The position numbers and the translations under genes were made by a program. The notes under the pieces were generated by a model that worked only from the letters and a program-made list of their open reading frames with translations, ran no database searches and had not been told where the DNA came from. A stretch of 59,320 nt of DNA, the filler included, from Sphacelaria rigidula (lineage: Eukaryota): NCBI GenBank assembly GCA_964200075.2. It is 5 parts of 5 records of this genome, joined end to end, with 100 filler letters (N's around TTAATTAATTAA, not from the genome) between each part and the next. Parts side by side here need not be neighbours in the genome. Positions count along the whole stretch, not along the records: positions 35,653 to 47,436 come from CAXNAA020004508.1; 4 more parts are not named here. The stretch is one strand, 5' to 3'. Of the stretch, positions 11,785 to 55,100 are shown piece after piece. The first letter of the stretch is position 1; each line of letters starts with the position of its first letter.

Positions 11785-11884
11785 NNNNNNNNNNNNNNNN
11801 NNNNNNNNNNNNNNNNNNNNNNNNNNNNTTAATTAATTAANNNNNNNNNNNNNNNNNNNNNNNNNNNNNNNNNNNNNNNNNNNN
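11785..11884. other. Artificial linker N44-TTAATTAATTAA-N44
   Basis: Six-frame-stop spacer within Ns, recurring every 11,884 bp. Confidence 0.99.
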
Positions 11885-17200: not shown

Positions 17201-20200
17201 CCGCCCGCTCATGAAAAGGTGAACATGAGACTCAACCTGAGTTTCTCTTCTGAGATCATGGCCTACTGAGTTGAAGCTAGTGTAGTGATCGCGGCTGACG
17301 CTGAACCGTCTTTTTCCTCCCATGTATCTCAGCCTGATCTCATCACTACTGACTGTACGGTACAGCCTTTCCTATGTACAAGCCGTGGTGCCTTGGGCTT
17401 TCTAATGAACAGCTGTGCTCGAGCACACTTGTCTTTCTTGATGATGGTGAACGAATCTCCACCTGAGGGCAGATCCCAAATTACGCCGGCAGAGCTCAGT
17501 TCTGGGTCTGCGGCGACGACCTGAGCCAAAACGAAAAAGGATCTGGATAATGATGACCCCGAAAAAACACGATTAACATGACAGCTGACTATGGTTGGCA
17601 TGACTTACCTTGTGATGTCGTCGATACTGAGTCTGCGCCTCATCACGTGAAAAATGCACGAACGTTCTGTTTAATCACAGCCGTTCGTCTTTTGCTATTT
17701 TTTACATGAGGTCAACTCTGGGAGGAAACAACTGACAGTAATGGTGGAGGCATACTAGGCCTAACCCTTAGCCCTGACCCTGACCCCGACTGAGGCATCT
17801 GGATATCCTCGGGAATTGGGGGCTGCAATGATGACTCTGGAAATGTCGTATGTTTGCAGAAGTCGATTCGGCACCGCAGGCGCCGATCTGGGAACAAGAA
17901 GTTTTGGGTAAGCTAGGAGTATGTGGGACTGTCAGCCCCTCTAAAGATCCACATATCGGTGTTTTCTCTTGGAGAAATAGTCGACCAAATCAACCGTGTT
18001 TCACGACTAATGCGTAGTCTGTACTGCTTCCACTCTATATTCACCGCATTGTTTATTGCGGGTGGGCCCATAAAGGTGGCGATCAAAAAGATCCCGTCGG
18101 CATTCGACGACGTGGTGGATGCGAAGAGGATCGTAAGAGAGGTACGCCTACTCCGCCGCCTGGACCACATGAACATTATCAAGATTGTCGACATCCTGCC
18201 GCCTCCTTCTCTAGCCGACTTCAACGATGTCTACATTGTGTCCGAGCTCATGGACACTGATCTGCACCGTGTCATCTACTCCAGCCAGGTATTTTGCTTA
18301 TCGCGTGTCTTGGCATATTTCTTTTCGATAGAAAAAGTGCGATGGATTTCGTTTCCGCGACTCTGATAGGTTAACGTCACCTACATGCTCGGCTGGATTA
18401 AACATTTTCATTATTCGCGTGCGGACGGAAGGCAAAATACACCAAAGCCAAGCCTTTTCGATCAAGAACAAGCGGCGGAAAGGCACGAAGGGGGCAGTTG
18501 ACTCCTGTGTTGCAGACCATCACGCCAGATACCACTCGTTTGTAGAAACATGGAAACCTCACACAATTCATTCCCAGCTACCACCGCGTCGAAGTGTTTT
18601 TGAACGAATCCGTGTATGCTCAGCTGCGGTCTGCCTTCCTTCACCTTGCCCCATCTCAGGGACCCTGACCATACTAGAACCACCTTTACCGAATTGGCAC
18701 ATGCAGTCATGTTCCACCCTTTCCTGATGGAAATCACATATACTGTTGTCACTTGCGTTGTTGTCCTCCGTTGCTCCCCCCCCCCCCCCGCCGCCGCATT
18801 GCCGTGTGTGGTGACTCTCCAGCGGCTGAGCGACCAACACGTGAAGTACTTCTTGTACCAGATCCTGTGCGGTGTGAAGTACATTCACTCTGCGTCCGTG
18901 TTGCACCGCGACTTGAAGCCCTCGAACATCTTGCTCAGCACGGTGAGAAGGGAAATTCATCGCCCTTTTTTCATTGTCTATTTTGTTACGAGGGTCCATC
19001 GGTCGCCCCGGGTAATCACTCCTTGTATCATTGCTTTTACCTCGAGGGAAGGAGGAAATCCCACCCAGCACTTACCACGTGAACGGGTTCGTGTGTCAAT
19101 GACCCGGAGCCTTGGCTAGACTATCGTGTGGTGCTCATGTGGGGGTAAGCGCCTCAAGCGTATGGAAGGCTCTGCTCATGGCAGTGTGGGGGTTGACACC
19201 GCTTAGACGGCCTGTCAACTTGGCGCAGTGCACCTGCTGCCCTACTCTTTGGAGCTTCAGCCGCAGTTCATATGTAAGGGTGTGCCAGGGCGCCTCCCGT
19301 TGCCCGCAACTGTGGACACGATCACGGCTTGGGCTGAGATTGGTTAGGTTTGAGTGTAAAGAAGAGATATATATATATATATATATATCTTTGAGTGGAT
19401 GCCTTGAGGCGTTACAGAAGTTGTGGCGACGAATGTGATGAGTACAACGAACAACCACGATTTCCGGCGGAATTCACTAGATGCTCTATTTAGTTTTTGT
19501 CCGGAGGATTCAATCCGTTATTCGTTGGTATTGTTCCGTTATGCACCCCGCGAACCATCCAGAATTGCGACCTGAAACTGTGCGACTTCGGGCTGTCTCG
19601 GGGAGTTAGCTCGCCGGATGAGGAGGAGACGGCAGAGCTGACGGAGTATGTGGTTACTCGCTGGTACAGATCTCCGGAAATCATGCTCGCGGCGGAGTAC
19701 GGTTATCCAATCGATATCTGGAGTGTGGGCTGCATTTTCGCGGAGATGTTGCTGCGCCACCCCCTGTTCCGCGGAGAGACGTATCTACAGGTGAGCATAA
19801 GTGGTTTGTACGAGAAGAGATGCCGTCTTTCCATTTGTCACTCCCTGCTCTCCTGTACCAATCTAATACAAGCACTAAGCTGCTGTGAGTCCTTCGTTGT
19901 GCCATTTTTTTTGTCATTTCGTCTTGCGAATCGTTTAGCGGCGGGGGGGTGTTCTGTTCATTTTTTGCAAACCCGGCGTCCGTCCTCGAGGTTGAGAATC
20001 AGGTCCTGCCGTTTTTCACTGTCCACTCAGAAATGAATTAGCCAATGACCCATGTAGGTGAGGTGACCAAAGTCGATGGTGCAACGCGGACCCGTGACGG
20101 AGATCCTCCTTGATGTGCGCCGCGATGATGATGAACACATGTAACCAACCTCTTTTCTGAGGGGCTATGTTTTTTCTTGGCTCTGACATTCTTTCGCGAT

Positions 20201-23668: not shown

Positions 23669-23768
23669 NNNNNNNNNNNNNNNNNNNNNNNNNNNNNNNN
23701 NNNNNNNNNNNNTTAATTAATTAANNNNNNNNNNNNNNNNNNNNNNNNNNNNNNNNNNNNNNNNNNNN
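23669..23768. other. Artificial linker N44-TTAATTAATTAA-N44
   Basis: Identical spacer. Confidence 0.99.
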
Positions 23769-30119: not shown

Positions 30120-30348
30120 CGTGCCCATGCACTCTGGCGGGGGTTAGAAAACACCGACGGGCCGAGCAATTCGTCATACCCGTAAAATAGAGAACCTTCT
30201 TTTCTTTCCCGTTCCATTTGCACGGGTCTGAAGAACACGCTGTGGGCGAATCGTTTGCTCAAAGGCTGAAAAAAACAACCATTTCTTGCCCAAAAAAACG
30301 TCAAATGTAAACCGTCAATTTTCCATCAACGGTTCCAAAAAGGTTGAT
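30120..30348 (+). repeat. Dispersed repeat shared with 47900-48135
   Basis: Near-identical tract ending aaacgtcaaatgtaaaccgtcaattttccatcaacggttccaaaa. Confidence 0.85.
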
Positions 30349-31142
30349 AATTGCAGAACTTTTCACGACAACAAAGGATATGACATGGCACCTGGTATCA
30401 AGTCAATCCTTCGCGCAGGACGAGGGGACGGGAGCGGACGGGGTGGAATACATAAGGAATTACTGGGACGGGACGGGACGGGACGGAAAGTGCGGACCCG
30501 GAAACTCGTCGAGACGGGACGGGTGCCTTTTCCGTTCTTTAAATCGACGAAGGGAGGGGGTTACCTGTCCTGTCCCGTCACTCGGGACCAGGGAACCTCG
30601 TCCCTTGAGATACCATCCTGCCCCAACGGCAAATACGAACCCTGTCCCCCGAGATCCCGTCTCCCATCCTCGCGGGGAAGTGTACATCAGCATTTCGAAA
30701 CAACGCTTTGAAACAAGAACTTGCTGAACAATTTCGGGGCGCACGAACAGAGCAACCAACATCCGTTTCAACATACTAGCGATGGCTTAGTTGAAATATG
30801 GCAAGAGCAACAGCAGAATTCAAACTAGCACCAAGGAATCCAATACTCCATCATGAACTCGGACGACCCTGGTTGAGCTTCTTGGTTACACCAAGCATTC
30901 GACTCGTATTCCTCATGATCGTGAACGTTCATGTCAGCACTGTACGGTACGGTACATGAGCACCGCAACCTACAAGCTCGGGATGCCTTCTGATTGATGA
31001 TCGATTGTCGCACCTTGACTGATGCCCCGGAGATCCACCCGTGGTCACATAATAAACGTACCCGAGATGAAAACAAAGTGGAAATACTCGCTGAAAAAAG
31101 GAAGAAAACATAAACGCAAAACAGACAAACAGAGTAGACTCA

Positions 31143-35552: not shown

Positions 35553-35652
35553 NNNNNNNNNNNNNNNNNNNNNNNNNNNNNNNNNNNNNNNNNNNNTTAA
35601 TTAATTAANNNNNNNNNNNNNNNNNNNNNNNNNNNNNNNNNNNNNNNNNNNN
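35553..35652. other. Artificial linker N44-TTAATTAATTAA-N44
   Basis: Identical spacer. Confidence 0.99.
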
Positions 35653-36625: not shown

Positions 36626-37110
36626 ACACGTGACAATCTGCTGAGGGAGCCCTTGGGGTCTCCGGAACACTTACTGACGAAGCCCTTGGGGTATCGGTCA
36701 TCCGTTTTCGCAAATGTTCGGTTGAAGAGAAGAGACGGGGTGTCTCGAGTAACGATTCACGAGGGAGTGAAAGTCGTGGAGACGCAGGAACAAAAAACAA
36801 GAAAATGAAATAAACGAGAGAGAAAAAAAAGTATAATGGACACCAACACATGACAATTTGCTGAGGAAGCCCTTGGGGTATCGGTCATTGGCACAGATGT
36901 CGAACACACGGCCGGTTATATAAAGGAACACTTACTGAGGAAGCCCTTGGGGTATCGGTCATCCGTTTTCGCAAATGTTCGGTTGAAGAGAAGAGACGGG
37001 GTGTCTCGGGTCCGACAGGCCACTACAACGGCTTGTGATTGTGGCTCCCGTGAGGTCGGAGAGACGCAGAAACAAAAACAAGAAAAACCGAAACGCTGAG
37101 CGAGGGAAAA
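36626..37110 (+). repeat. Imperfect direct repeats with a fourfold motif ctga(c/g)g(a/g)agcccttggggt
   Basis: 36626-36830 approximates 36846-37110; an ~85-bp core from ggaacacttactga to ggggtgtctcg is nearly identical. Confidence 0.8.
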
Positions 37111-37565
37111 AAGGTAGTTGAAGCTCTCACAGCTAGCAAGGAGCAAGTGCAAGGAGTGTCTCAACATAAAATGGACGACAGTGGAGGGAAAGACTACAAT
37201 CGTAGTCTCTGCTCTCCAGAACCGTCGAGCCAAACGAGGACGGAAGAGTGAAGTTGCGAGAGATTCGCAACTCACAACTCAATACGATGAACACACACAC
37301 GTCCTCAAGATATCACCAGGTCACCAATTTCAGGTGGGTTGATGGATGTGAAACCTCAATGAGGGGTCTTCACAAATACCATACGGCGGGCTATGACAGT
37401 GTATCGAGCCAACTGTCGAAACGGGGCAGAACAAATACGCTCGTGCCAACGCGCTTGTATCACCTTGTCTGGGGACACAAATGTGTTCGAAAAAGGGCAT
37501 CACAGTTCCAGAACCAGTTCAACCCGACCTACAACATGCGGCGGCTCCAGATTGACATAGAAACG

Positions 37566-38125
37566 TGACCAGGCCCGGGTACACACACATGCACATGCAC
37601 ATATCCATATACACCCAAATACACATACACGCATACACGCACATGGGTGTGCACATACACACACATACACAACACACAGCAACAAAAAAGGGGGGGGGGG
37701 AAGAAAAAAGAAAGAAAAACGGACAGAACGCATCAAGACTCGTCTTCTCTCCATGACTTGTCGGCATTCCGAAGTACGGCGTCGTCTATGTTGCCGTCGT
37801 CATGGCGCTGGAGACACCAGGACCCGCGGCGAGCGGACGGTGCTTGACCAGGCCCGGGTACACACACATGCACATGCACATATCCATATACACCCAAATA
37901 CACATACACGCATACACGCACATGGGTGTGCACATACACACACATACACAACACACAGCAACAAAAAAAAGGGGAGGGGGAAGAAAAAAAAGAGAAAAAC
38001 GGACAGAACGCATCAAGACTCGTCTTCTCTCCATGAATTGTCGGCATTCCGAAGTACGGCGTCGTCTATGTTGCCGTCGTCATGGCGCTGGAGACACCAG
38101 GACCCGCGGCGAGCGGACGGTGCTT
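37566..38125 (+). repeat. Tandem duplication, 2 x ~280 bp
   Basis: Units start at 37566 and 37845 (tgaccaggcccgggtacacacacatg); near-identical. Confidence 0.95.
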
Positions 38126-38682
38126 CAGTGTAGTAAGCGTCGTCCAAAAGAATCTTCACGGGGCCGGGGTCATTTAGGAAACGGATGTGGTAGGCGTTGT
38201 CGGAGTCGGGTGCTGATAAACGAATCTTGCCCAGCCACCAGAGAGAGTCCTGCCTGCGCCTTGTACCAGAAGTACGCGCCTTTTGGTAGACGTTTCCTGC
38301 GAAAAGAAAGCAAGCATTGCGCACGCAAAACAAGGCTATAGCCAGCCATGATGAACCGGGCCGAATGCTCCCGGGCCAGCTCCCGTGCCGCCGCTCCTTT
38401 CCGCACAGACCTGTATCTTCGGTTTAACACACGGTGTTGCGCAACATCGCCTACCCAGTACAACATAATTTGTCTACGGAAATGCTGCAAGTCGACTTCC
38501 CGTTCCCACGTGACCCGCATCAATCCTTTCCAGTGCGTTTGGTACATCACCGCTAGTTTACCACCACGACCGCGGACCAGTTGGTATCCGCTTATATGAT
38601 CGACTACCACGCGTTCCACAGGGGCTTGAACGTTTTCAGCCGTGACATGAAAAGGCGGCGACTTGGTGGCATGCCTCGTCAA
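38013..38682 (-). pseudogene. Pol C-terminus: chromodomain followed by a PWWP/Tudor-like domain (frameshift at ~38241-38247)
   Basis: VDHISGYQLVRGRGGKLAVMYQTHWKGLMRVTWERE (chromo-like); KGAYFWYKAQAGL/WWLGKIRLSAPDSDNAYHIRFLNDPG (PWWP-like). Confidence 0.65.
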
Positions 38683-38886
38683 GACGTACTAGCTGAGTCC
38701 TAACGGCAGTTGTTTGGGCATATCAGTGGTGTCGTGCGGGGCGGTGCAGGGTTTGCAGCGCCAGGCAGACACGCGGTTTTTCTGCGGAGGCCCAGCTTCA
38801 TCCGTGGGGAAATCGAGGTACAAGAGGTTTTCCCCGATGGGTCGATCATCCGGTGCGGTAGCACTTGGCCCAACACCCAAAATGTT

Positions 38887-41220
38887 CTACGGCCCAGTCC
38901 AATTGAGGGACAGCTTGGCCTTCAACACCTTATCCGGCGAATCCTTACTCGCGCTGGCGCCTTGGCGAATCGTCTGTACATCGTTGTACACCCACGCCCA
39001 TGCACCTACCTTCCACACTGGGCGCTTATACATCACCGCATCCAAGGTGGCATTGGCACTAACCGCTTTTGCCAAATTGATTAGGTTTTGCTCCCGCACC
39101 AAATCATACGTCAACCGCAGACGATGACTCAAAAGGTCATGATACTCCCTGATATTCCGGTCCAAACTCTGATGACCGCCCACGTTGCGGCGCTCGAAAA
39201 TGGTCAACGGCAGCCTCGGCATGCGACCAATTTGAATTTCATTTGGTGCAAGACCAGTGGCGGTGTGGACTGAGTTGTTGTAGTTCATCTGTACGAAGGG
39301 CAGGGGCAGATCCCAATCCGTTTGCCGTTCATTGGTGACGGCTGACAGCATTTGCGCCATCGTATGGTTGACACGTTCCCTTCCACCGTTCGTTTGGGGG
39401 TGATACGGACTTATAAAAATGCGGTTGGAACCCAGCCGTGCACTAACCGCAGCAGAAAATTTGCCAGAAAAGGGTTGGCCATAGTCGGACAATAGTTTCC
39501 GGGGGACACCCCATTGTGGCATGTAGTTGTACACCAGAAAATTGGCGGTGCCCTCTGCGGACTAGTTGGTTTCGGAGACGGCGTGCATGACGGCGTGGCG
39601 ACTGAAGCGATCAGTAACCAACAAAATGTAATTGTTACCACTCTCCGTGAGGAGGAACGGTACGAAATAGTCCCAAGATATAACTTCACCGGGCCCATTG
39701 GGGAGCGGCATGGACAGGACTGGCCAACGGACGGTCTGGCGTGACGTCTTGCGTGCCTGACATATCAAGCAACGCCGTACCCACCAACGGACACATTGGT
39801 CAATACGTACCCACCAATAGAATCGCTCGATGAACTGGGTTGTCCGAGTTGTACCCAGGTGGGTTGAAACGTTGGAGTGACACTCGTGTAGGACCCATGG
39901 TCGCATGAGCATGGGCACGTAGAGGCGAAGAGGTTCTTGACCGAGTAAGCGAGCATATCTACCGGTGGGGCGGTTTGGCTGAGGTGTCCGCGTGGGTTTG
40001 CGGACTAGAAGTACAGTACCATCATCATCCGTATGCAGTTTGCCTTTGTGGGCGAGCTCGATAACTTCATCCTGAGTGGGTGCCCGGCGCTGTCCAACGG
40101 GTTTGAGGATATTCGCGGACGGGAATGGAACGGGGCAATTTTGGGACAGGTGGAGTATAGCTGCGCGGCACACGGGCTCGTCCAATTGTTCTCGCGCCCA
40201 ATCTTGGCGGGAAAACAAGCTTATTTTTTCTTTTCGTTCACTCTCGACATCGGGGCCAAGGAGACAGTCGTAGGCATCGTTCACAGTGTTTGCTGGACTG
40301 TCACCCTCGGAAGGTAGGGTACAAGGGCAGGCAAGTTCCGACAATAGATCCGTACCTGCAGCGTCGACCTCTCCAAGAGATTCGTTGGGAGTGGAATGTT
40401 GTGGGAAAGCACAGACACTGGTACAGCAGAGGTCCACGATCGGAGCATCGTCCTCCGCGGATTCGTCGATCGTCGGCAGGCCAGCAGAGGGTGAGCCCAC
40501 CTTGGGCGTTGGCTTGTATCGACGCGGTTGGGGTGGGGCGAGGAAACCCGCCAGCACCGGAACCGGGGGAAGATCAGGTCCAGAAACAGCGGCGTGCGCG
40601 GCAGCCTCCGCTGCTCTGCGACCTCGCGTTCTACTAGAGATAAGATCGCGTACTTGTACAGGGAAAACAGATGGGGAGACGGTGAGTTCCGGGTCGGCGG
40701 CAGTATTGATACGGCGGCCCGTCACTCTGAAAAGGTCGTATCTGGATATGGTACTTGGGTTGGTGTTGGCACTTTTAGATACCGTAAGAAAAGATCTGGG
40801 GGGCAAGCCACCTAGCGCCGTTTTCGGGGCAGAAGGTGCCAGCCCACTTATGCTTAAACCCGTAGTCTCATTGGAGACAAGAGGCGTCCAGAGACCAAGA
40901 CGACCACGGCGACTGATCAAGTAGACGATATCCTCCGTAGGGTCTATTTTGCGTCCCGCGGGGGAGGAATCAATCGGTGTGGCAGGTGTCGGCAATCGCG
41001 AGAAGTCAGCGTTGGCGTTCTGCGAACCAGTCCGATACTTCAACTGAAAGTCGTAAGAAGATAAGATTTCAAACCAACGCTGCACTGTCGCATTGTGCTC
41101 CGCTATTTTCGCGAGGTTTTCCAACAACTTGTGGTCGATCAAAACGACGAAAGGAATACCATACGAAAAGTGACGGAGACGCCGAACACCCCAAACAACG
41201 GCCCCCGCTTCTTGCTCCAT
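38887..41220 (-). pseudogene. Gypsy RNase H C-terminal half and integrase (HHCC, DDE core, GPY/F-like)
   Basis: EQEAGAVVWGVRRLRHF...DHK; HECHS...HLG...CLICQ; ISWDYF...TDRFSR; LLSDYGQPF...SPYHPQTNG; NWTGP; interrupted by stops. Confidence 0.93.
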
Positions 41221-41267
41221 AACGCTCCAATTTTGTTCGTCAGGGAATGTTGTGCGGCTCAGATAGA

Positions 41268-42338
41268 CTATGGGGCGGATGGTATATCCGATTGCTCCTG
41301 CTCAAGTGTACGGCCGAAACCGATCTTGCAAGCGTCAGTGCGTAGGCGGAAAGGCCGTGAGCCGGCATCGGCGGCATCCCAATGAGGGTATACAAGGATC
41401 GGAGGGCTTGACCATTGGGCAAGGAGATCGTGGACTGTCTCTTCCATGGGTTTGGTGAACTCGAACTTCACCCCTCGCTTGAGAAGAGTGGTGAGGGGTT
41501 TCAATGTGCGCGCAAGATTCGGTAGATATTGGCGGTAATAGCTGAGGCCGCCGAGCAGCGAGCTCAAGTGAGGGACATCTTTGGGCACTGGCATCTTTGC
41601 AACAGCTGAAACTTTGTCGAAGGTGGGGTTGCGGCCCTCTGGGGTAATGCAATGCCCCAGATATGTGATAGTCGTGGCGCCAATCTGTGATTTCGATGGC
41701 GACAGTTTCAGATTATGCTGCTCGAATCGGCCAAAAAATATCGCTAATTGCTCTACGTGCCCCGCGGGGTTAAGATCCTGAATCACGGCATCGTCCAGGT
41801 ACATCTTGCAGTTGGGGAGCCCATTGGTGACGCGAAACATGACTCTTTGAAAAGCCCCGGGAGCACCAGAGGTACCTTGTGGTGTCACTAGCCACTTATA
41901 AAGTCCAGACGGGGTGCAAAACGCCGTCATCTCAATGGAGTCGGGGTCCATTACCAGTTGATGATATCCCGACTGCATATCAAATGTATAAAATATTTTA
42001 CCTCGTCCAAGGCAGTCGATGATTTCATCTATACGGAGGAGCGGAAGGCGGGGAACTGTCGTCACCGCGTTCAAGTGTTGATAATTGACAGTGAGGCGGA
42101 TCTTGCCATTTTTCTTTCGAACAACAACCAAGGGGGAGGCCCAAGGAGAGGTCGAATGACGAATGATCCCCGCCGCTAAGTAGCTATCTATGATTACTTG
42201 TACTTTATTAGCGAGCAGCGGGTTTGTGCGATAAGGGCGTGTGGCGATGGGGGTGCGTTCCTTTCGGCATATTGATTTTGAACGGAGCCGTCGTGCAGCG
42301 ACCCAAATCAAGAGGTGAGGTGGAGAATCGCGCGGCAT
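41268..42338 (-). pseudogene. Gypsy reverse transcriptase and RNase H N-terminus
   Basis: STSPWASPLVVVRKKNGKIRLTVNY, FDMQSGYHQ, TAFCTPSGLYKW, MYLDD, YLGHCI, TDACKIGFG. Confidence 0.96.
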
Positions 42339-43161
42339 GGCGAATCAGGACATCGCGCAGTTTGTCGATGATCGCTGTAGTCCAACCCTCACCGTCCAGA
42401 TTAAAGGTGATGCGACGAAGGTGTGGGGGAACGTCATCCTACAGTCGCAAGAAACTCGCCCGCTGCTCAGGCTGTAAGCAATCCAACAGTGTTTGGGAAA
42501 TTTACGGTTCCGCGTCTTCATCAGACGCGGTCACTACCATTGGGTCAATTGGTCCCGGTCCATCACAGTCAGCATGTGGCGCGAAGTCAGGCGGAGTAGC
42601 GGTACTGTTGTGGGGGCAAATATCCGACGTAGGCGCACGTAGTAGGGGAGCGGAGGCATACCCCAACAACTGATTGGGTACTAAATCATCGCACTCTGGA
42701 GACGCCAGGGGAAATTGCTGGCGTCCGTCCTCGACGAAAACATCCTCCTGTCCAAACATGCCATCTGTCGAACCATCACAGTGAAGGAAATCTACCAAGT
42801 ATTGTCCTGTGAGTGCTGGTAGACCATTGCGCCGCGCCAGATTCACCATCACGGGTTGGGGTTCATGCGATAGTGACGCTACTGCCTCCCCAACATAGAA
42901 CAACTTGAAAGCGGTTTGTGAGGCAGACGAGTCGCGCGTGAAAGCCTGGGCACCGGTTTGGCCGTCAAGATGGCCCGGCTGCAATTTTCCCTTCGTGGGT
43001 GAATGCGGTGACGGAGGTTCGGTGGTGTATGTTTGTGTCGAAAATCGCAACTAGCTATCTCTGCCTACCAGGACATCCAACGCCATGGCAATTTGTGAGA
43101 CAATCAAGGCCCAAACAGAAAGGTGTGCCGTGGGCTTCGCATCATTGAAGAACTGAACACT

Positions 43162-44409
43162 TCAACGCACGGCCTGGGTGGCACTCAAAGTAGGACCGGG
43201 CCCGAAGCCGCCGAAAGTGCGGGGTGGGACAGCGGACAGACATCTATCATCTGCCGCGCCGGTACGAATCATGTCCCGCCAGCAGCTGTCGGTAATGAAA
43301 GTCTGTGGGGAGCCTGAGTCCGGGAGTGCCAGGGCCATAAGTTGACGACTTGCACAAGACCCACTATGAAGTCCAACTCTAGTTGTAAAAGACGCATCGT
43401 CCAAGGTGACAACGCCACTCTTGAGATCTGGACCAAACTGTGGCAACGAATCGATATGTGTGCTACGCACCTTGTGGACTATGGTATTCAGATACACTCT
43501 GGAGTGGTCCTGTGGGGCCTGGGGATGGTGGTACTGGTCTTGGCTGGTCTCTAACGTTGGGGCATCAGGGCTACTTATCTCATAAACCGTTATGGGCGAG
43601 CGACTATTAGGGTTTGCCGTCGTGGTGAAGGCGCGGCCGGCTGTGATGTCGGCAGGGAGGGCATGCACTACCTGCTGAGTGGATGCTACAAGTGTAGGGT
43701 CAGCAGATATGTCAACCCTGCACTGCGAGGTGCCTGCCGAATCATCTACAGTAGTGGGCAAAGGGGGCGACGATTTATCGTCGTCGGACGCGGTTCCGGT
43801 GACCGCATCAGCGGAACTCACGTCAGATACAAAAACACATGCATTGTTCACAGACATGATTTCCACGGATTTATCGGGAGACACGTTGTCGGAGGCCAAC
43901 CTTGGCATTACAGGGAACGAATCGTCTGTGACCCGCCTGAGACTGTCGTGGTGTGGGGTCGCCAGTGGCGGACCCGCACGTGTACGCGTCAACGAATCGA
44001 CAGCAGGTAGGGTGGACTTGTGGCTCAACACGTTCCGCCGCGACCTCTTTGTTGGTGCTGGCTCAGGGGGCAAAGGGGGGACAGAGGGTGGTAGCGGCAC
44101 ATCCAATGCCCGAGGCGTACCATCGTGACCTGTCGCTGTTGAGAAGTTCGCGGGAGTGCTCCGTGACGGTGCGAGCTCTTGGCTTACCGACCGGATCACT
44201 GCCGGGGGTCCTTCTCCAACCCGTGGAGCAACGGAAAGCGAGGGTTCCCTGTGGTCATGATCCACAGTGGAATAACTATGCTCAACTACAATGGAGCCCG
44301 ACGCCACTTGGGTGTCTGGGCTAACATGTATCCTACGATGGATGGTCGCAGGGGCAGCAACACGAGGACCGGGAGACAGCTTCTCTCTCGGCACGTGGAT
44401 ACCTGTCAT
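43162..44409 (-). pseudogene. Gypsy aspartic protease preceded by a long Pro/Ser/Thr-rich region
   Basis: ALPDSGSPQTFI (DSG motif) near 43290-43335. Confidence 0.8.
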
Positions 44410-45446
44410 GGTACGATACTCACCACCTAGGTAGGAAGGTGCCAGCTAAGTGGGCACCTGGGCTAGCGGGCTCAAACACAATCATGAGTATCGAAGCTAT
44501 CGAGCTCGACTTTACCGAGTGCAGAGCCAGTCATGTTCGCAGCGTTGGGCTGCAGACGCGATGAGCCGCTCAGACGCCAGAACAACATATGTTGCATGAA
44601 GGTCAGGCTTACATTTGTGAAGACCAGAGAATCCTCTGAGATAGCAGTCCATGATGGCGTAGATACTCTTGTATTATTGGCGTACAGGCTAACTTGTGCT
44701 TTGCTACTTAAGATGCATAGTCCAAAACGCTGTGACACGTGAGGGCAGCCGGGTCAATCCAACCACAATGGAGTATGACCCATCAGGTACCAAGCATGAC
44801 AAAGTATGACACATGGGAACCTAATCGACTGGACAGTGACCAATAAATCTGTAACATACCTGCAGGACGTGGCCTCCCCCTTTGGTTTAACTGAGAGGAA
44901 GATAGCTGTTCACGGACTGAGCTATGAAGTGGTATACTAGAGTGATCATGTCCAGTGGTCGTACGACACAATTTTTCACCTGTGAGAGCTATAACCACGA
45001 GGGGTTTCGCGGGATCTTGCCTGAGTGGGACCCGTGACCCAGGACTGATCGAACCCATTGTACCCACACCACAAGCTTGAGTTAGCGCCGGCCGACGATA
45101 TCTCAGGTTCGGGGTGTGGGGGCATTGGCCGCGGAAAATTCACGGGGACCGCACCGTCTCGGTGTTCGGTCAATATATTAACGGGGACCGCACCGTCTTG
45201 GTGTTCGGTCATTAGACGTGTAAGACGGGGTTGCACTCGCGTGGAATGCTGTAGCACCGGAGACTGAGGGGAGATTTCGCCAGTCTTTGGTGTAGGCTCA
45301 TGCCTCGAGACACTATACGAATTACCAAGTACAGGGACTGATACCGAATTTTGCGGTGCAGTCATGGAAGGTGGCGTCCACCAAGCGGTACCCTCGCAGG
45401 GTTTACTCGATAGCGTCGAAGGGTACGCGGCGTATCGAGGAACCAG

Positions 45447-46800
45447 TCAGGTGGTACGCGTGGCGGGGTGCGCTGTGTTATTTAACTGAGTCTCTTGCGC
45501 TGGAGGGCCATGGGGGTCCGAGGGCGAGGCGCATCTAGCGTCTTGCGAAGGTTGTGTCGACGTCTGACTGTCCAGAGGTTGGCTGGGTGGGAGTGCTAGT
45601 TGATTGGCGTTGGGGGGTTGGGTATGAGCCTGCGACGCTTGGCCATGTGCTTGATTGGTCAATTGAGCAGCGTGTGGGTTGTAACCATACCCCTGAGTCT
45701 GGGGGCCGTATGAGTGGTGGTGACCTCGGTAGTTGTTGTAACGGGGTTGGTTTGTGCGAGGGTAGTGGTTGTGCGGAATACGCATGTTCTGTTAGCGACT
45801 ATCACGGTTGTCGCGGTACGAGCGCATGCAGGCCTGCCATATAGGCCAGCAGTGCGCGTACTCCGGCTCGAAAAACGCTCTGTTCAAGAGACCCGACGAA
45901 TTTGTGAAAGGCGCTTGACACTGGCGCACTGAAAACGCAGCAACTCTACAATCCGAAGTGCAGTCCGTTGGGAGATTAAAAATCAATCCGCAGTTTAAAA
46001 AACTATCCTTAAACCGGCGAATGAGATCCGACCGTGCGGAGGGATCTATGTCTGAGGCCCACAATGGCGGATCATTGTTGTGCATCGACATACTGACGTT
46101 GTATACATGTTGCCAGGTTTCATGAGACAAGGGCCAGCTAGGGAAACGGCTAGCGAAGGGTTCGCGGTAGTCAATTGAATTCACCATTACTTAACCGGTA
46201 GGCAACATGTTCTCCGGTATCCACGGGCTTTTCGCAGCTTTGGTGCATGAATCGTCCGTACGGGGTGCACGAGGATCAGGGTATGTGTGGGTGTCGATAT
46301 GTGGGCGGGATGCGACACTACTTGAAACACTGGGCGGTGCTGGGGCCTGCTCGTAGGTACCGGGGCTAGAGTCGTACGGCAAAGCGGGCGTGCGGTCTGG
46401 ACGTCGACTATCAAGTCTGCTCCACACAGTTTCAATGTCAGCAAACGGAACCGAAGCGGTGGCCGCCTCGTTGGCGAAAACGATTGGCATGAGGGCGGGA
46501 AATTGTCGACTCATGCTGGATCGAAATACACTCATGACCATATCCTGGGTGGGCGCAAGCTCTCTCCCTCCATCAACAGTCACTGTGACTAGCTCACGGA
46601 AACCGCGTAGATATTTGTTGAACGGGGTGCCTTCGGGTACGTGGTACATAAAAAAACAGCAAATTGTGCGAATTGAGGTTTAACTCCGAGATGAGGTTCA
46701 AGTGGGCAACCTGACTTGCGAACGTTTTGTAGCACAAGTACCGAGGACAAGCTCTTATTCGGAAGAAGTAACCTGTGGAGGTGGACCCGTGACGCGTCAT
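45447..46800 (-). pseudogene. Gypsy gag remnant
   Basis: Consecutive minus-strand ORFs upstream of pol (46191-46649, 45792-46187, 45447-45785) with a decayed knuckle-like LNCG...SVRQC and a Q/P/N-rich tail. Confidence 0.65.
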
Positions 46801-47436
46801 GTTCAGTACGTCGAAGATTGGAGAGAAGTAAGTCGGGTGAGCACTCTTGTTACTCTACGCCACAGGGGAAAGCAGTAGGAGCGCACGGATCCCATGTCCT
46901 GCGATAGCCCCCCCCCCTCGGGCTGCGCCAGCGCGAGGAACAAAACCTCGGTCATGCCCGACAGGGTGAAGGGGGGGGGGGGAGGGGGGGGGCGTCAGGC
47001 ACGACTAAGACGGGCACCGTTCGTGTCTTGGGATCGATCAGCTGCGGGTTTGTGTTTCCCCCCTCAATCAAAAGGTCGGTTTCAACGCAACATGGATAGG
47101 CCATTGCCCACAAGATTTCGCCACGGAAACGACTAGGATACTCCCCTTCGAACTCTTCCCTCTGGCGCAAAGAATGGTGCATTGTCTTCCATCGAATTCG
47201 AGAACACGAGCAGGTAGGTGTTCCACGCACGGTGCTACCACCGGTTGCGAACGACAAGCATTGACGCCGTCTATTCTCATCAACCGGGACCCTCGTGAAA
47301 CCACGCTCAACGCGACAGGACGATGAACCCCTCCACCCCCTCCCCCCCACGAACTCCCAAACTCCGTACCCCAACCCAACCCCAGGAATCTAGACCCTCG
47401 TTTTCAGAACCGAAGCCATATGTATTACATCCGTCA

Positions 47437-47536
47437 NNNNNNNNNNNNNNNNNNNNNNNNNNNNNNNNNNNNNNNNNNNNTTAATTAATTAANNNNNNNN
47501 NNNNNNNNNNNNNNNNNNNNNNNNNNNNNNNNNNNN
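47437..47536. other. Artificial linker N44-TTAATTAATTAA-N44
   Basis: Identical spacer. Confidence 0.99.
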
Positions 47537-48138
47537 CTCTCCACTGTTGAGCATGGCGTGAGAAAAGATTCCAGATCGCTCCGGGAATCGAACCCCCCAG
47601 TACTGGTTGAAGAAAAGTGTGTGTGGTTCAGGGCCCATGACTTCAAATTGATCAACCTGTATGACTTATGTAGGTCCCGCATTAATCCGAAGGTGGGACA
47701 TATATGGGCGCTCACGTCGAACTTGTCACACATGGCGTACATGTACAAGCCATTCACGCCTTGATTCATGAAGAAGGGTTGGCTGTGTGAATTACAAATG
47801 ATGTACAAACCGTATGATTTATTCGTTGAAATGATGACTCTGAGTTGACTCACGAGTTGATTTGTCCTAACCGTGGAAGATTGCTTCACGAAAGGTCAGC
47901 CGTGCACACTGGCCGGGGGTAGAAAACACCGAAGGGTTGAACAATTCGTCATACCCGTAAATTAGAGAAGCTTCGAACCTTCTTTCCTTCCACGTTCCAT
48001 TCGCACGGGCTCTGAAAAACACGTTTTGGCGAATCGTTTGCTCTAAGGCTGTAGAAAAACAACAATTTCTTGCCCGAGAAAACGTCAAATGTAAACCGTC
48101 AATTTTCCATCAACGGTTCCAAAAGGGTTGAGAATAAA

Positions 48139-52165: not shown

Positions 52166-55100
52166 TAGTGCTGGATATCGTACCGAAAGTTTCCATGTAT
52201 CGTATCGAAATATCGTTATCGTCATCGTATCGGAAATATTTCGATAAAACGATATCGTAACGATAACGATAACGATAACGATATGTTCGATACGATACGA
52301 CACGATACGATGAAAGCGGTGAAACGACACACCCCTACTGACCACGGGTTCGACAGATCGAGCTAATGTGACGGACAGCAGGAGCACAGAACGCAGAGCA
52401 CAGTGCTTTCATACTAGCTGACTTCGTATGGCTAACATGTTGGCGGAAGAGGTGGCCGACTCCCCAACCGTCGAAGATGTCGACTACGGCGAAGGGAAGG
52501 TCGACCTGAGCAAGCGCAGGCCCAAGCAGAAAGGGCGATCCTATGTGTGGACTGACGGGCTTTTTTTGTTGGATCCCAAGGGCCGTGCGGTTTGCACCAT
52601 ATGCTGCGAAGTGGTGGTCACCCCGTCAGGCAACACCACAAATCTTACCGCCCACTACGCCCCGCCGACAGTGGAGGATGAAGAGGAACAAAAAGCCAAG
52701 CTTTCGGCTGCAAAGAAGAAAAGTAGCAGCGGGACTGAAGAAGAGAGCACGCATCAAACAAAAATCGACGGGTTCACCCAGTGAGTATATGCCGCGAGTT
52801 GGTAGTCGAGTATTGCGGATAGCTTCTACAGTACTACAGTTTAGTGCGGCATTTAAAAAAAAAGGGGGGATAATGTCGTGAGACGTTGCAAGCGATGCTG
52901 GTAGCGACCAGCCCAGCTGCGACTACGGACATGGACGTCCACCTCAAGGGTGAGTAAAAGAGGGGAACATTCACGAACGACGCCGAGTTCGTCTCATTAC
53001 CCAGAGTTTCGACTGTTGAAATATCGGTGGGGTCCCGATTAATTCTTATGTATGAACGAAACAATCGATGCGACATACGGTCAAAACATTCGACATGTAG
53101 CGAGGATATGAAGAATTCATGGCGCAAGATGGTGCGGACTGCACATGCATACGACGCATTCGATTACAACAAAATGAATCTCTCATATCTGCGTGTTCTA
53201 TTCTTCTGCAATGTTACGCTCGATACATCAGGTGCCCTTCATCTCCCTGAGCCTGCACTGGATCGTTACATCAAACAGTGCATGGACTGCCCGGAACTGC
53301 ACGGTAGCCTGCGACGTTTTCATTGGATCCCATACGGGAGTGCGCATCGCCGCTAAGCTGATGAGCATGCCGAAGAAGCTGAATATCGACGAGAACGTTA
53401 CCTGCTTCACGGCCGAAACGGCTGCGAATCAGAGGAACGCTGTCGAGGTGCACATGCCCGACAGGATTGAATGGCTTGGATGTGGATGCCGCAAAGCGAG
53501 CTTACTGTCAACAAGGCCATCTCTACTCCCACTCTGAGGAAGACTCTCGCCGTCTTCTTTAAGCTTGCAGCGCACCTGCACAATTCTCCCCTTTTGCAGA
53601 GAGAGTTCGAAGACGCGCAGAAGGTTGGTTTGCGAGCTACTATTTCAAGTTAGCCAGTCGACAACTTCTCTGCTGCCTTCGCTTGCACCATGGATTTGTG
53701 ATGATTGGCTGATGCTGATGTCTTGAATTATTTGTGGACATACGTAACGTTTACTGTGCCGTCGCCCCCCCCCCCATACTGTCCGTTCCCTTTCCCACCA
53801 TTTCCCTACTGAAAGTCGATCCGCCGCAGAGGAGGTTCCCTAAAAAGAATCCAAGGAAGATCCCAACGGGCTGCATCACGCGCTGGTATCCGTGGTTCGG
53901 CATGATGTCTGCCACCCGGCAGCACAAAAGCAGTGTTGTGGCGATCACTAATGATTGCTTCAGCGTGGACATTGACATCACGGACAAGGACTGGAGTAAC
54001 GCGACCATCATGACGAGGATACTTCAGCCGTTCAAGGGCGCGGTCGAGGCTATGGAGGAGAACTACCTTGGCCTGGCGCAAGCCCCTTGCATCATGACCG
54101 TCTTGAACGCCCACATCGAGGCGGAGGCCACGGCGTTCGATGACGGTCCGTTCGCCGCTGCAGGTGACCGGATGCTCCTCGACCATCCTGACCGATGAGA
54201 CGAACTGCCCGACGTGATGAAGTTGGCGTCCGCTCTCAGTCCACGTACCAAAGGGCTCGAATGGATAGAGGAGACGGGAAAGAAGAAATGACGGGCGCTT
54301 CTTTTGGCCGACCTTAAGCTAATGTTCGCCAGGGACATCAGGGCCGAGGAAGCAGACCTGGGGGCAAAGTGTGACTGCGGGTCTGGTCGTGGTGGCTCGA
54401 GCGGTCATGGCTCGGGCTCGGGCGGCGGGTCCGGTGATACTGACTTGGGCGCAGCCCCGGCGAAGAATAAGCAGAAGAAGACGGGTTTTCTTTTGAGAGC
54501 CGCATCGACTGCGGAGGCCATGGGTTCAGGGGATGGGTCAGACGTCACTCGACACGAACAGAACTCAGGAAGAGCTAGTTCTGACCCTTCGAGGCTCTCA
54601 ATCACGGCAAGGATTCAGGCGGCCGAGGCCGAGCTTCGGCGCTTTGTTCTTCAAGAGGGGCTTTGCGATGACGACGGCTGCAAGTCAGATGACCATGACG
54701 TTGACACTCGGGTGCGCCGTCGAGAGGATGAGCCGCGCTGGTGGTGCCGGCATCAGCTTGTATTCCCGTCTCTGGCGAGGCTCGCAGTCAAGTACCTGGT
54801 GATACCTCCGTCGTTGGCTGCGTCTGAACGCATTTTCTCCATAGCCGGCAACATCGTCATTAAAAAGCGCCACGACTCGGAAATGATACAATCAATGCGC
54901 TTGTTTTCTTGTACGGTTCGCACGGGGTGGCTTGGGACAGCGGGATTTCGCAGCAAGCCCTCGGCCGGACCGAAAAATGATTTGAGTATTCGGTGGTTGT
55001 GCAGTCGTTTGTGGTTCTGGATTGCGGCGCTGTTGTGGTGGCGATCTGGCGTGTGCTACTGCTGCTGTTAGTGTCTTTTCGTAGCGTGTAACGCGATTTA

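Follow-up and report, generated by a model that had tools for sequence, protein, structure and literature searches.

A brown-algal Ty3/gypsy integrase that probably ends in a divergent chromodomain and a Tudor-like barrel

How does the integrase of a brown-algal Ty3/gypsy retrotransposon end, and what might that end be for? The question was raised by a decayed pol copy on the minus strand of a stretch of 59,320 nucleotides (nt) from Sphacelaria rigidula (GenBank assembly GCA_964200075.2), which in its full length is called the window here. An earlier note on this DNA had described a chromodomain-like segment, a frame break and, beyond the break, a second hidden domain of the Royal family, which it labelled PWWP/Tudor-like and fitted to the PWWP pattern. 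Fusions of an integrase with a chromatin reader are the clearest natural examples of transposons choosing their landing sites, and nearly all of those known to us carry one chromodomain. The results given below indicate that the integrase of this family probably ends in a two-domain tether, made up of a divergent chromodomain and a Tudor-like barrel.

Reading and conservation of the integrase tail

The minus-strand region 38013-38688 was the 3′ end of the decayed pol copy. Its parts are given here with positions along the window; P0004 is an intact relative.

38013 to 43467, minus strand: decayed Ty3/gypsy-type pol (from tblastn of four full-length relatives, Pfam and stop positions).
38449 to 38616, minus strand: divergent chromodomain (ERVVVDHI...YQTHWKGLMRVTWERE...LYWVG), approximately 55 amino acids (aa) (from sub-threshold Pfam matches, the P0004 model and Foldseek).
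38365 to 38424, minus strand: arginine-rich helix between chromodomain and barrel (NRRYRSVRKGAAARELAREH), corresponding to helix 290-307 of the P0004 model (predicted local distance difference test, pLDDT, 82-90).
38250 to 38257, minus strand: likeliest frame break, two adjoining copies of GCAG, which give 4 nt more than intact relatives have (from the sequence and from the comparison of frame B with P0004).
38082 to 38289, minus strand: predicted Tudor-like SH3-type beta-barrel (LPKGAYFWYKAQ, then the break, then DSLWWLGKIRL...AYHIRFLNDPGPVKILL...GSWCLQRH), approximately 70 aa (from AlphaFold2, profile, Foldseek and VIA-align).
38013 to 38081, minus strand: weakly conserved C-terminal end with the stop codon (38013-38015); identity 0.40, pLDDT below 50 for the last 8 residues.

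The barrel of the window copy was split over two frames. Frame A (38170-38688) read ...YQTHWKGLMRVTWERE...LPKGAYFWYKAQAGL and then nonsense to a stop at 38170-38172; frame B read ...QDSLWWLGKIRLSAPDSDNAYHIRFLNDPGPVKILL...GSWCLQRH...NADNSWREDES and ended with the stop at 38013-38015. Frames A and B differed by a 4-nt surplus (equivalently, by 1 nt). A read-through of the 224-residue tail with an X at the break (P0003) was queried against a collection of 5.8 billion proteins for longer proteins, and 26 were found at E ≤ 0.001 (best E 1.3e-122, 82% identity). At least 90% of the tail was covered by 23 of these homologs. In the alignment, 25 of the 26 crossed the junction without changing frame and left the X column empty, and the sole exception (P0029) ended there. 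Thus, beyond the break it is frame B that gives the family's true sequence, and the window copy carries 4 surplus bases. The shift by 4 nt after the chromodomain-like segment and the run to the stop at 38013, both described in the earlier note, were confirmed, and the intact copies continued through the segment in frame, and the closest relative ended no more than a few residues from that stop.

The position of the break was slightly different from that first proposed, which was a CT run at 38241-38247. From 38252 downward, frame B read QDSLWWLGK, which is letter for letter the KAQDSLWWLGK of P0004, and the Asp that is kept in this reading was present at its column in 79% of the 131 family sequences. 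This match and the GCAG tandem place the surplus most likely at 38250-38257, a few bases upstream of the CT run. The 4-nt surplus was upheld, the CT run is the less likely site, and the repaired reading, which had been given as AGLWWLG, would be DSLWWLG according to P0004 and the conserved Asp.

The terminal module was also followed beyond these homologs. An alignment of the last approximately 120 residues of 22 relatives (A1) was converted to a profile and scored by HMMER against 1.84 billion cluster representatives (clusters at 50% identity). The profile matched 465 proteins at E ≤ 1e-3, 243 at E ≤ 1e-10 and 25 at E ≤ 1e-30, and most of the matches were short fragments with the module at the C-terminal end. 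Across the 22 sequences of A1, 18 columns were invariant, including W38, W47, R65, D68, G71, P72 and the block S-W-C-L-Q-x-H, and eight aromatic positions were conserved at 77-91% within a domain of approximately 65 residues. The mean pairwise identity (17 relatives, 136 pairs) was 0.57 in the barrel, 0.61 in the integrase core part, 0.67 in the chromodomain and 0.40 at the very end. The value for the barrel was close to that for the integrase core, which argues for a constraint on this segment similar to that on the enzyme. The module exists and is in frame in intact copies, always at the end of the protein and about as conserved as the integrase core.

These counts also bear on a simpler explanation of the second frame, namely that the continuation is a chance open frame or a 3′ untranslated region and that the protein ends soon after the chromodomain. 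The stop of frame A soon after the break (38170-38172) in the window copy would agree with it. However, 25 of the 26 homologs continued in one frame through the whole segment, and the segment alone had 243 clusters at E ≤ 1e-10. We consider this explanation refuted, with a negligible chance of being correct.

Among the profile matches, 119 were longer proteins. Precomputed Pfam domains were available for 39 of these and included reverse transcriptase (RT) or integrase families in 37, but Chromo, Tudor or PWWP in none; annotation at the Pfam level misses a conserved domain in these elements. All relatives with a species name were from brown algae: Ectocarpus sp. CCAP 1310/34 (4), Sphacelaria rigidula (1) and Nemacystus decipiens. 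The tail occurred together with a NADAR domain (PF08719) in P0028, P0214 and P0229, and without one in P0008 and P0012, which are full-length, and in the window copy, where no NADAR domain was found in the upstream open reading frames (ORFs) of the window. In P0028 (Ectocarpus sp. CCAP 1310/34), the NADAR domain was N-terminal (E 1.9e-40) and the tail was the same. Judging by these proteins, the NADAR domain is variable within elements that share the tail. One match among the 150 listed, P0172 (1249 aa, 9 stretches), was rejected as a false positive, a bacterial surface-repeat protein sharing only the motif Y.VRFLD.DG. In another, the EukProt gene model P0032, the tail module was joined to TIMP and WSC domains; most likely, the predicted gene is a chimera that spans a fragment of a transposable element.

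Predicted folds of the two terminal domains

The segment that precedes the break, which the earlier note had called chromodomain-like, was supported as such by a model of 423 aa of P0004. The N-terminal half of this model was poor, and residues 231-410 were confident (73-95 in blocks of 10 residues). The segment formed a three-stranded antiparallel sheet (strands 229-239, 245-253 and 259-263) and a C-terminal helix (264-279), with pLDDT 73-90. The Foldseek search with the P0004 model returned the MPP8 chromodomain (3svm_A; probability 1.0, template modelling score (TM) on target 0.64, root-mean-square deviation (rmsd) 1.9, 33% identity), as well as Swi6 (2rso), cpSRP43 and the Tudors of PHF1 and PHF19. 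The Pfam matches to Chromo (PF00385) were below threshold: 13.3-13.7 bits in the window (E 0.06-0.08) and 17.2 bits in P0004. The family was found at E ≤ 0.1 in 12 of 17 relatives (best E 0.0016), and the gathering cutoff of 25.1 bits was reached by none of them.

The terminal domain was modelled with AlphaFold2 from the A1 alignment, the target being the intact part of P0004 (mean pLDDT 84, predicted TM-score 0.77). The model was a five-stranded SH3-like beta-barrel (strands 36-40, 46-54, 61-66, 72-76 and 93-98), in front of which lay a short strand and a helix. When the A1 profile was compared with the sequences of the PDB, the best match was the Tudor of PHF19 (E 0.013, 18 bits), followed by the SH3 domain of ASAP1 and the Tudor of Drosophila Pcl. 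Foldseek against the PDB gave a similar order: Tudor chains of PHF1 and PHF19 took nearly every place from rank 1 to rank 21, and MTF2 stood at ranks 29 and 39 (E 0.012-0.12, probability 0.97-1.0, TM on target 0.6-0.67 and 20-27% identity over approximately 50 columns for the three proteins). After these Polycomb-like Tudors came TDRD3 and Spindlin, and the PWWP domain of DNMT3A (3llr) was at rank 38 (E 0.11).

A second structural method, VIA-align, was run against 48,161 representatives and returned 8 chains at Z ≥ 5 and none at Z ≥ 8. These included an SH3-like domain of TraI (Z 6.0), Spindlin-4 (5.5), the UHRF1 tandem Tudor (5.2), the RDM15 Tudor (5.2), the Shuguo PWWP (5.1) and PHF19 (5.0). 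On the 997 chains retrieved by Foldseek, the repeats of Spindlin1 came first (Z 6.0-6.4, 64-69 residues aligned), and PHF1 (4hcz_A) reached Z 5.2 with rmsd 2.6 and 58 of 58 residues aligned. The VIA-align rows were almost only Royal-family readers (Z 4-6.4), among them the TDRD3 Tudor. In the ESM Atlas, the nearest named clusters were PWWP, Spin/Ssty, Agenet and Tudor-knot, at a score of 0.80, a level that shuffled proteins often reach, so these are leads only.

The sequence profile and the two structural methods agree on Royal-family barrels, and this agreement makes the case for the fold class. According to the model, the terminal domain would be a Tudor-like Royal-family barrel and not a PWWP domain. 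The second hidden domain claimed after the chromodomain was borne out in that it is in frame, conserved, modelled as a barrel and unseen by Pfam; the structure prediction with AlphaFold and Foldseek that the earlier note had proposed gave the SH3-like barrel at pLDDT 84, with weak matches. The label PWWP was not supported: PF00855 did not match, the motif is L-W-W-L, no helical bundle follows and PWWP chains ranked below Tudors.

Two other comparisons were set aside. The Foldseek rows from BFVD were small phage SH3-like proteins of no evident relevance, none of them at E ≤ 0.001. The idea that the barrel arose within the protein by duplication of either the chromodomain or the integrase GPY/F domain was rejected; the hhalign probabilities were 0.1% and 0.6%, respectively, and values this low among the three domains argue that the barrel is not a recent internal duplicate.

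Proposed role of the tail and comparison with known systems

In intact copies, the integrase is extended past its catalytic core and its GPY/F C-terminal domain by the chromodomain, the arginine-rich helix and the predicted Tudor-like barrel. This tail may serve as a built-in chromatin tether that docks the integration complex on nucleosomes and so biases the choice of new insertion sites, as chromodomains do for chromoviruses. The tethering role is suggested by analogy with the established role of integrase chromodomains, and passages of PMC11541908 and of bioRxiv 10.1101/2021.11.30.470311 cite Gao et al. 2008 as a precedent for integration guided by a reader. We also considered, more speculatively, that the chromodomain, the Tudor-like barrel and the basic helix form a self-contained two-reader module for some combination of nucleosome features that is specific to brown-algal chromatin (candidates are H3K36me3, H3K79me2 and H4K20me3), which would act through non-canonical pockets and direct integration without a host tethering factor; on the present evidence we hold this to be rather unlikely.

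Several results weigh against the identification of the tail as a two-domain tether of this kind. All fold and profile matches of the barrel were statistically weak (no Foldseek match at E ≤ 0.001; a best Z of 6.4, with values below 8 being common; E 0.013 for PHF19), and the Foldseek search with the P0004 model also gave no match at E ≤ 0.001. The top row of the VIA-align search against the whole set was the SH3-like domain of TraI, which is not a histone reader. Pfam Tudor and PWWP matched neither the read-through tail nor any of the 17 relatives, and a single Agenet match was found in 1 of the 17 (E 0.027). The ligand pockets were incomplete as well. The chromodomain cage is made of three aromatics at set positions; in the alignment to MPP8, only one of the three, the middle Trp of HWKG, was kept, with Leu after KG, and the first-strand cage position was Val or Leu in the family alignment.

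In PHF1, according to passages of PMC7492083, the methyl-lysine cage of the Tudor consists of W41, Y47, F65 and F71; the mutants W41A, Y47A and F65A lose binding, and F71A binds approximately threefold more weakly. The corresponding places in the family were taken from the HMMER alignment to PHF19, that is, from sequence only, with frequencies calculated over the family alignment. The Y47 place was W (91%) and the F65 place was F (81%), but the W41 place was A, G or S (40%, 23% and 17%) and the F71 place was P (82%), such that two of the four PHF1 positions were kept. The acidic residue after the Phe block was also kept (D, 85%). Other conserved aromatics adjoin the missing W41 place (W38, 87%; Y39, 77%; W46, 86%; module numbering), and these may build another pocket; alternatively, the ligand may be something other than a methyl-lysine. 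From its residues, neither domain looks like a canonical trimethyl-lysine reader. Because both cages are incomplete, H3K36me3 reading and gene-body targeting are unsupported; by analogy, a PHF1-like or LEDGF-like reading of H3K36me3 would be possible, but it is not favoured. In addition, passages of PMC12477816 report that Ectocarpus is without H3K9me and H3K27me3 and that its repeats are marked by H3K79me2 and H4K20me3, so the classical ligands may not exist in these hosts.

Two other explanations of the barrel were weighed against these data. The earlier note had proposed a PWWP domain that reads H3K36me2/3 and acts as a built-in tether of the LEDGF/p75 type, steering insertion to transcribed gene bodies or introns. 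In PWWP domains, strand 2 begins with a P-W-W-P-type motif, and the barrel is followed by a helical bundle. The family motif at strand 2 was L-W-W-L (L 69%, W 86%, W 91%, L 85%), and the only helix after the barrel in the model was 103-106 (4 residues), with no helical bundle. The strand pattern G.xFWYK...WWLGKI...Y.VRF does resemble the beta1-beta3 pattern of PWWP and Tudor domains, PWWP made up two of the first three named clusters in the ESM Atlas, and both DNMT3A 3llr and the Shuguo PWWP (rmsd 2.5, 56 residues aligned) were among the fold matches. The best-matching Tudors, those of PHF1 and PHF19, are themselves H3K36me3 readers (passages of PMC7492083). However, PF00855 matched neither the window tail at E ≤ 10 nor the 17 relatives at E ≤ 0.1, Tudor chains stood above PWWP chains both in the sequence profile and in Foldseek, the Z of the Shuguo PWWP was tied with that of many Tudor rows, and the residue equivalent to W41 of PHF1 was small. 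A single window copy, moreover, says nothing about targeting. Taken together, a PWWP domain that directs insertion to gene bodies appears very unlikely.

The barrel could instead be an SH3-like module that is not a mark reader. It would then bind DNA, RNA, a host protein or the unmodified surface of nucleosomes, or aid the multimerisation of the integrase, as retroviral integrases do with their SH3-like C-terminal domain. The incomplete aromatic cage, the arginine-rich helix directly upstream of the barrel and the first place of TraI in the VIA-align search, where KOW, Spt5 and PcrA Tudor rows also occurred, are in line with such a role, and the structure behind the Shuguo PWWP match is one bound to single-stranded DNA. 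MTF2, which has Ser at the fourth cage place, binds methyl-lysine peptides weakly (passages of PMC7492083). Against this, most of the matches, and all of the best ones at the sequence level, were methyl-lysine or methyl-arginine readers, and eight aromatics were conserved at 77-91% in approximately 65 residues. The element also has its own GPY/F C-terminal domain upstream, to which the barrel showed no similarity (hhalign, 0.6%). A barrel that is not a mark reader is unlikely, and a probable two-domain tether of chromodomain and Tudor-like barrel is the reading that we retain.

This arrangement was compared with known elements. Passages of PMC12477816 (Genome Biology 2025) describe four Gypsy lineages in Ectocarpus, three of them with 'putative C-terminal chromodomains', including the centromeric ECR-1, and state that the lineages are not phylogenetically chromoviruses. 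One chromodomain lineage, exemplified by Gypsy-12_Ec32, bears an N-terminal NADAR domain. The host group, the order of pol and the integrase-fused chromodomain are like those of the family described here, but the description in those passages mentions the chromodomain only and no second barrel. P0028 combines NADAR with the tail, so that in the NADAR lineage, at least, the chromodomain is followed by the barrel. The same passages describe Gypsy-10_Ec32, with a Tudor at its C-terminus, as the first transposable element reported to bear such a domain, which dates the first published Tudor-bearing element only to 2025. It is likewise a brown-algal Gypsy integrase ending in a Tudor-type reader; compared by description only, it differs in being a separate lineage with the Tudor in place of the chromodomain, whereas here the two are in tandem. 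The barrel found here escapes the standard Pfam models.

Chromoviruses and other fusions of a chromodomain with an integrase, among them MAGGY, Tf1, the plant Tekay and CRM elements and ECR-1, resemble the present family in having a reader fused to the integrase's C-terminal end, with a presumed role in directing integration to a given chromatin state, but chromoviruses and the other fusions carry one reader, not the two found here. According to passages of PMC11541908, all three cage aromatics are present in ECR-1, whereas only the middle Trp is kept here. A survey of fusions between transposable elements and readers found mostly Chromo and PHD domains (passages of bioRxiv 10.1101/2021.11.30.470311).

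Among cellular proteins, the Tudors of PHF1, PHF19 and MTF2 (readers of H3K36me3 and H3tK27me3) were the best profile and Foldseek matches and share the five-stranded barrel; the equivalents of Y47 and F65 of PHF1 (W and F) and the acidic residue that follows align with the family barrel. The likeness to these Tudors is limited to 25-27% identity over approximately 50 residues with weak statistics, and the W41 and F71 equivalents differ as described. In the barrel, beta4 and beta5 are also separated by a long insert, a strand and a helix are added at the N-terminal side, and the context, a retrotransposon pol, is unrelated. The logic of LEDGF/p75 is the same, with a barrel of the Royal family connecting integrase and chromatin. 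There, a host protein with a true PWWP domain tethers lentiviral integrase in trans, whereas the barrel described here is in cis and shows neither the PF00855 match nor the helical bundle of PWWP domains.

Full-text literature searches on Tudor or PWWP with integrase and retrotransposon returned no description of an integrase tail with a chromodomain and a Tudor. Integrase-reader fusions are already in print, including a Tudor-bearing Ectocarpus Gypsy, but the tandem is absent from the passages of PMC12477816. The statement in the earlier note that the architecture was not known to be described held, in these searches and passages, for the tandem and not for a Tudor-bearing Gypsy as such. Two Royal-family domains in tandem with non-canonical cages, in a widespread family (465 protein clusters at 50% identity) and in hosts reported to be without classical repressive marks, point to a chromatin recognition that is unexplored. 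The tail is furthermore a compact natural module in which to study how readers in combination determine the preference for integration sites.

The decayed copy and the rest of the window

The order of pol on the minus strand was RT, RNase H, integrase and reader tail. Pfam matched the window ORFs in the same order, with RVT_1 (E 1.3e-21), RT_RNaseH (E 7.3e-18) and Integrase_H2C2 (E 8.4e-15). This RT-RNase H-integrase order places the copy in Ty3/gypsy, and the top PDB match for the family profile was the Gag-Pol of Ty3 (7q5b, E 3.5e-37). The remaining features of the copy are the following.

41652 to 42122, minus strand: reverse transcriptase domain RVT_1 (PF00078), residues 75-231 of the ORF at 41268-42344.
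39745 to 39918, minus strand: integrase H2C2 zinc-binding domain (PF17921), residues 462-519 of the ORF at 39562-41301.
38887 to 38904, minus strand: motif NWTGP of the integrase C-terminal domain, which we take to be of the GPY/F type (from the ORF list and the alignment of relatives).
37566 to 38125, no strand assigned: tandem duplication with a 281-bp unit, 97.9% identical (from self-BLAST and a second weak tblastn match at 37754-37858).

Full-length relatives aligned by tblastn from approximately 43467 down to 38034. The alignment required at least three changes of frame, near 42255, 41285 and 38250, and the integrase frame was interrupted by stops at 39562-39564, 38887-38889 and 38689-38691, with additional stops upstream. 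The pol copy of the window is dead. The stop at 38887-38889 fell on the aromatic residue of the GPY/F-type motif (NWTGP* in the window), a residue that in intact copies was F in the A2 majority line (LSLNWTGPFKILAVGP, NWTGPF) and W in P0004 (LSLNWTGPWKILGVGP, NWTGPW).

No pair of long terminal repeats (LTRs) flanking pol was found by self-BLAST of 37000-47000 and of the whole window. The window copy is probably truncated, and the absence of LTRs says nothing about the family. Direct repeats at 30125-30351 and 47900-48135 (approximately 235 bp, 86% identical) were tried as LTRs and rejected, because they had no TG..CA ends; this pair, which brackets the element at a distance of approximately 18 kb, is probably a dispersed repeat. 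The 281-bp duplicated unit at the end of pol spans the last approximately 37 codons and approximately 170 nt of TG/CA-rich downstream sequence, and the end of the protein (GSWCLQRHDDGNIDDAVLRNAD.SWREDES) is therefore encoded twice.

Elsewhere in the window, paired runs of 44 N were found at 11785-11884, 23669-23768, 35553-35652 and 47437-47536, with a spacing of 11,884 nt; they look masked and not biological. An open frame with a Pkinase fragment (Pfam E 6.3e-20) at 19494-20036 on the plus strand is probably an exon of a host gene, approximately 18 kb from the element along the window. A further open frame at 54292-55071, also on the plus strand, contained a hAT-family dimerisation domain (E 5.2e-08) and is a remnant of a DNA transposon.

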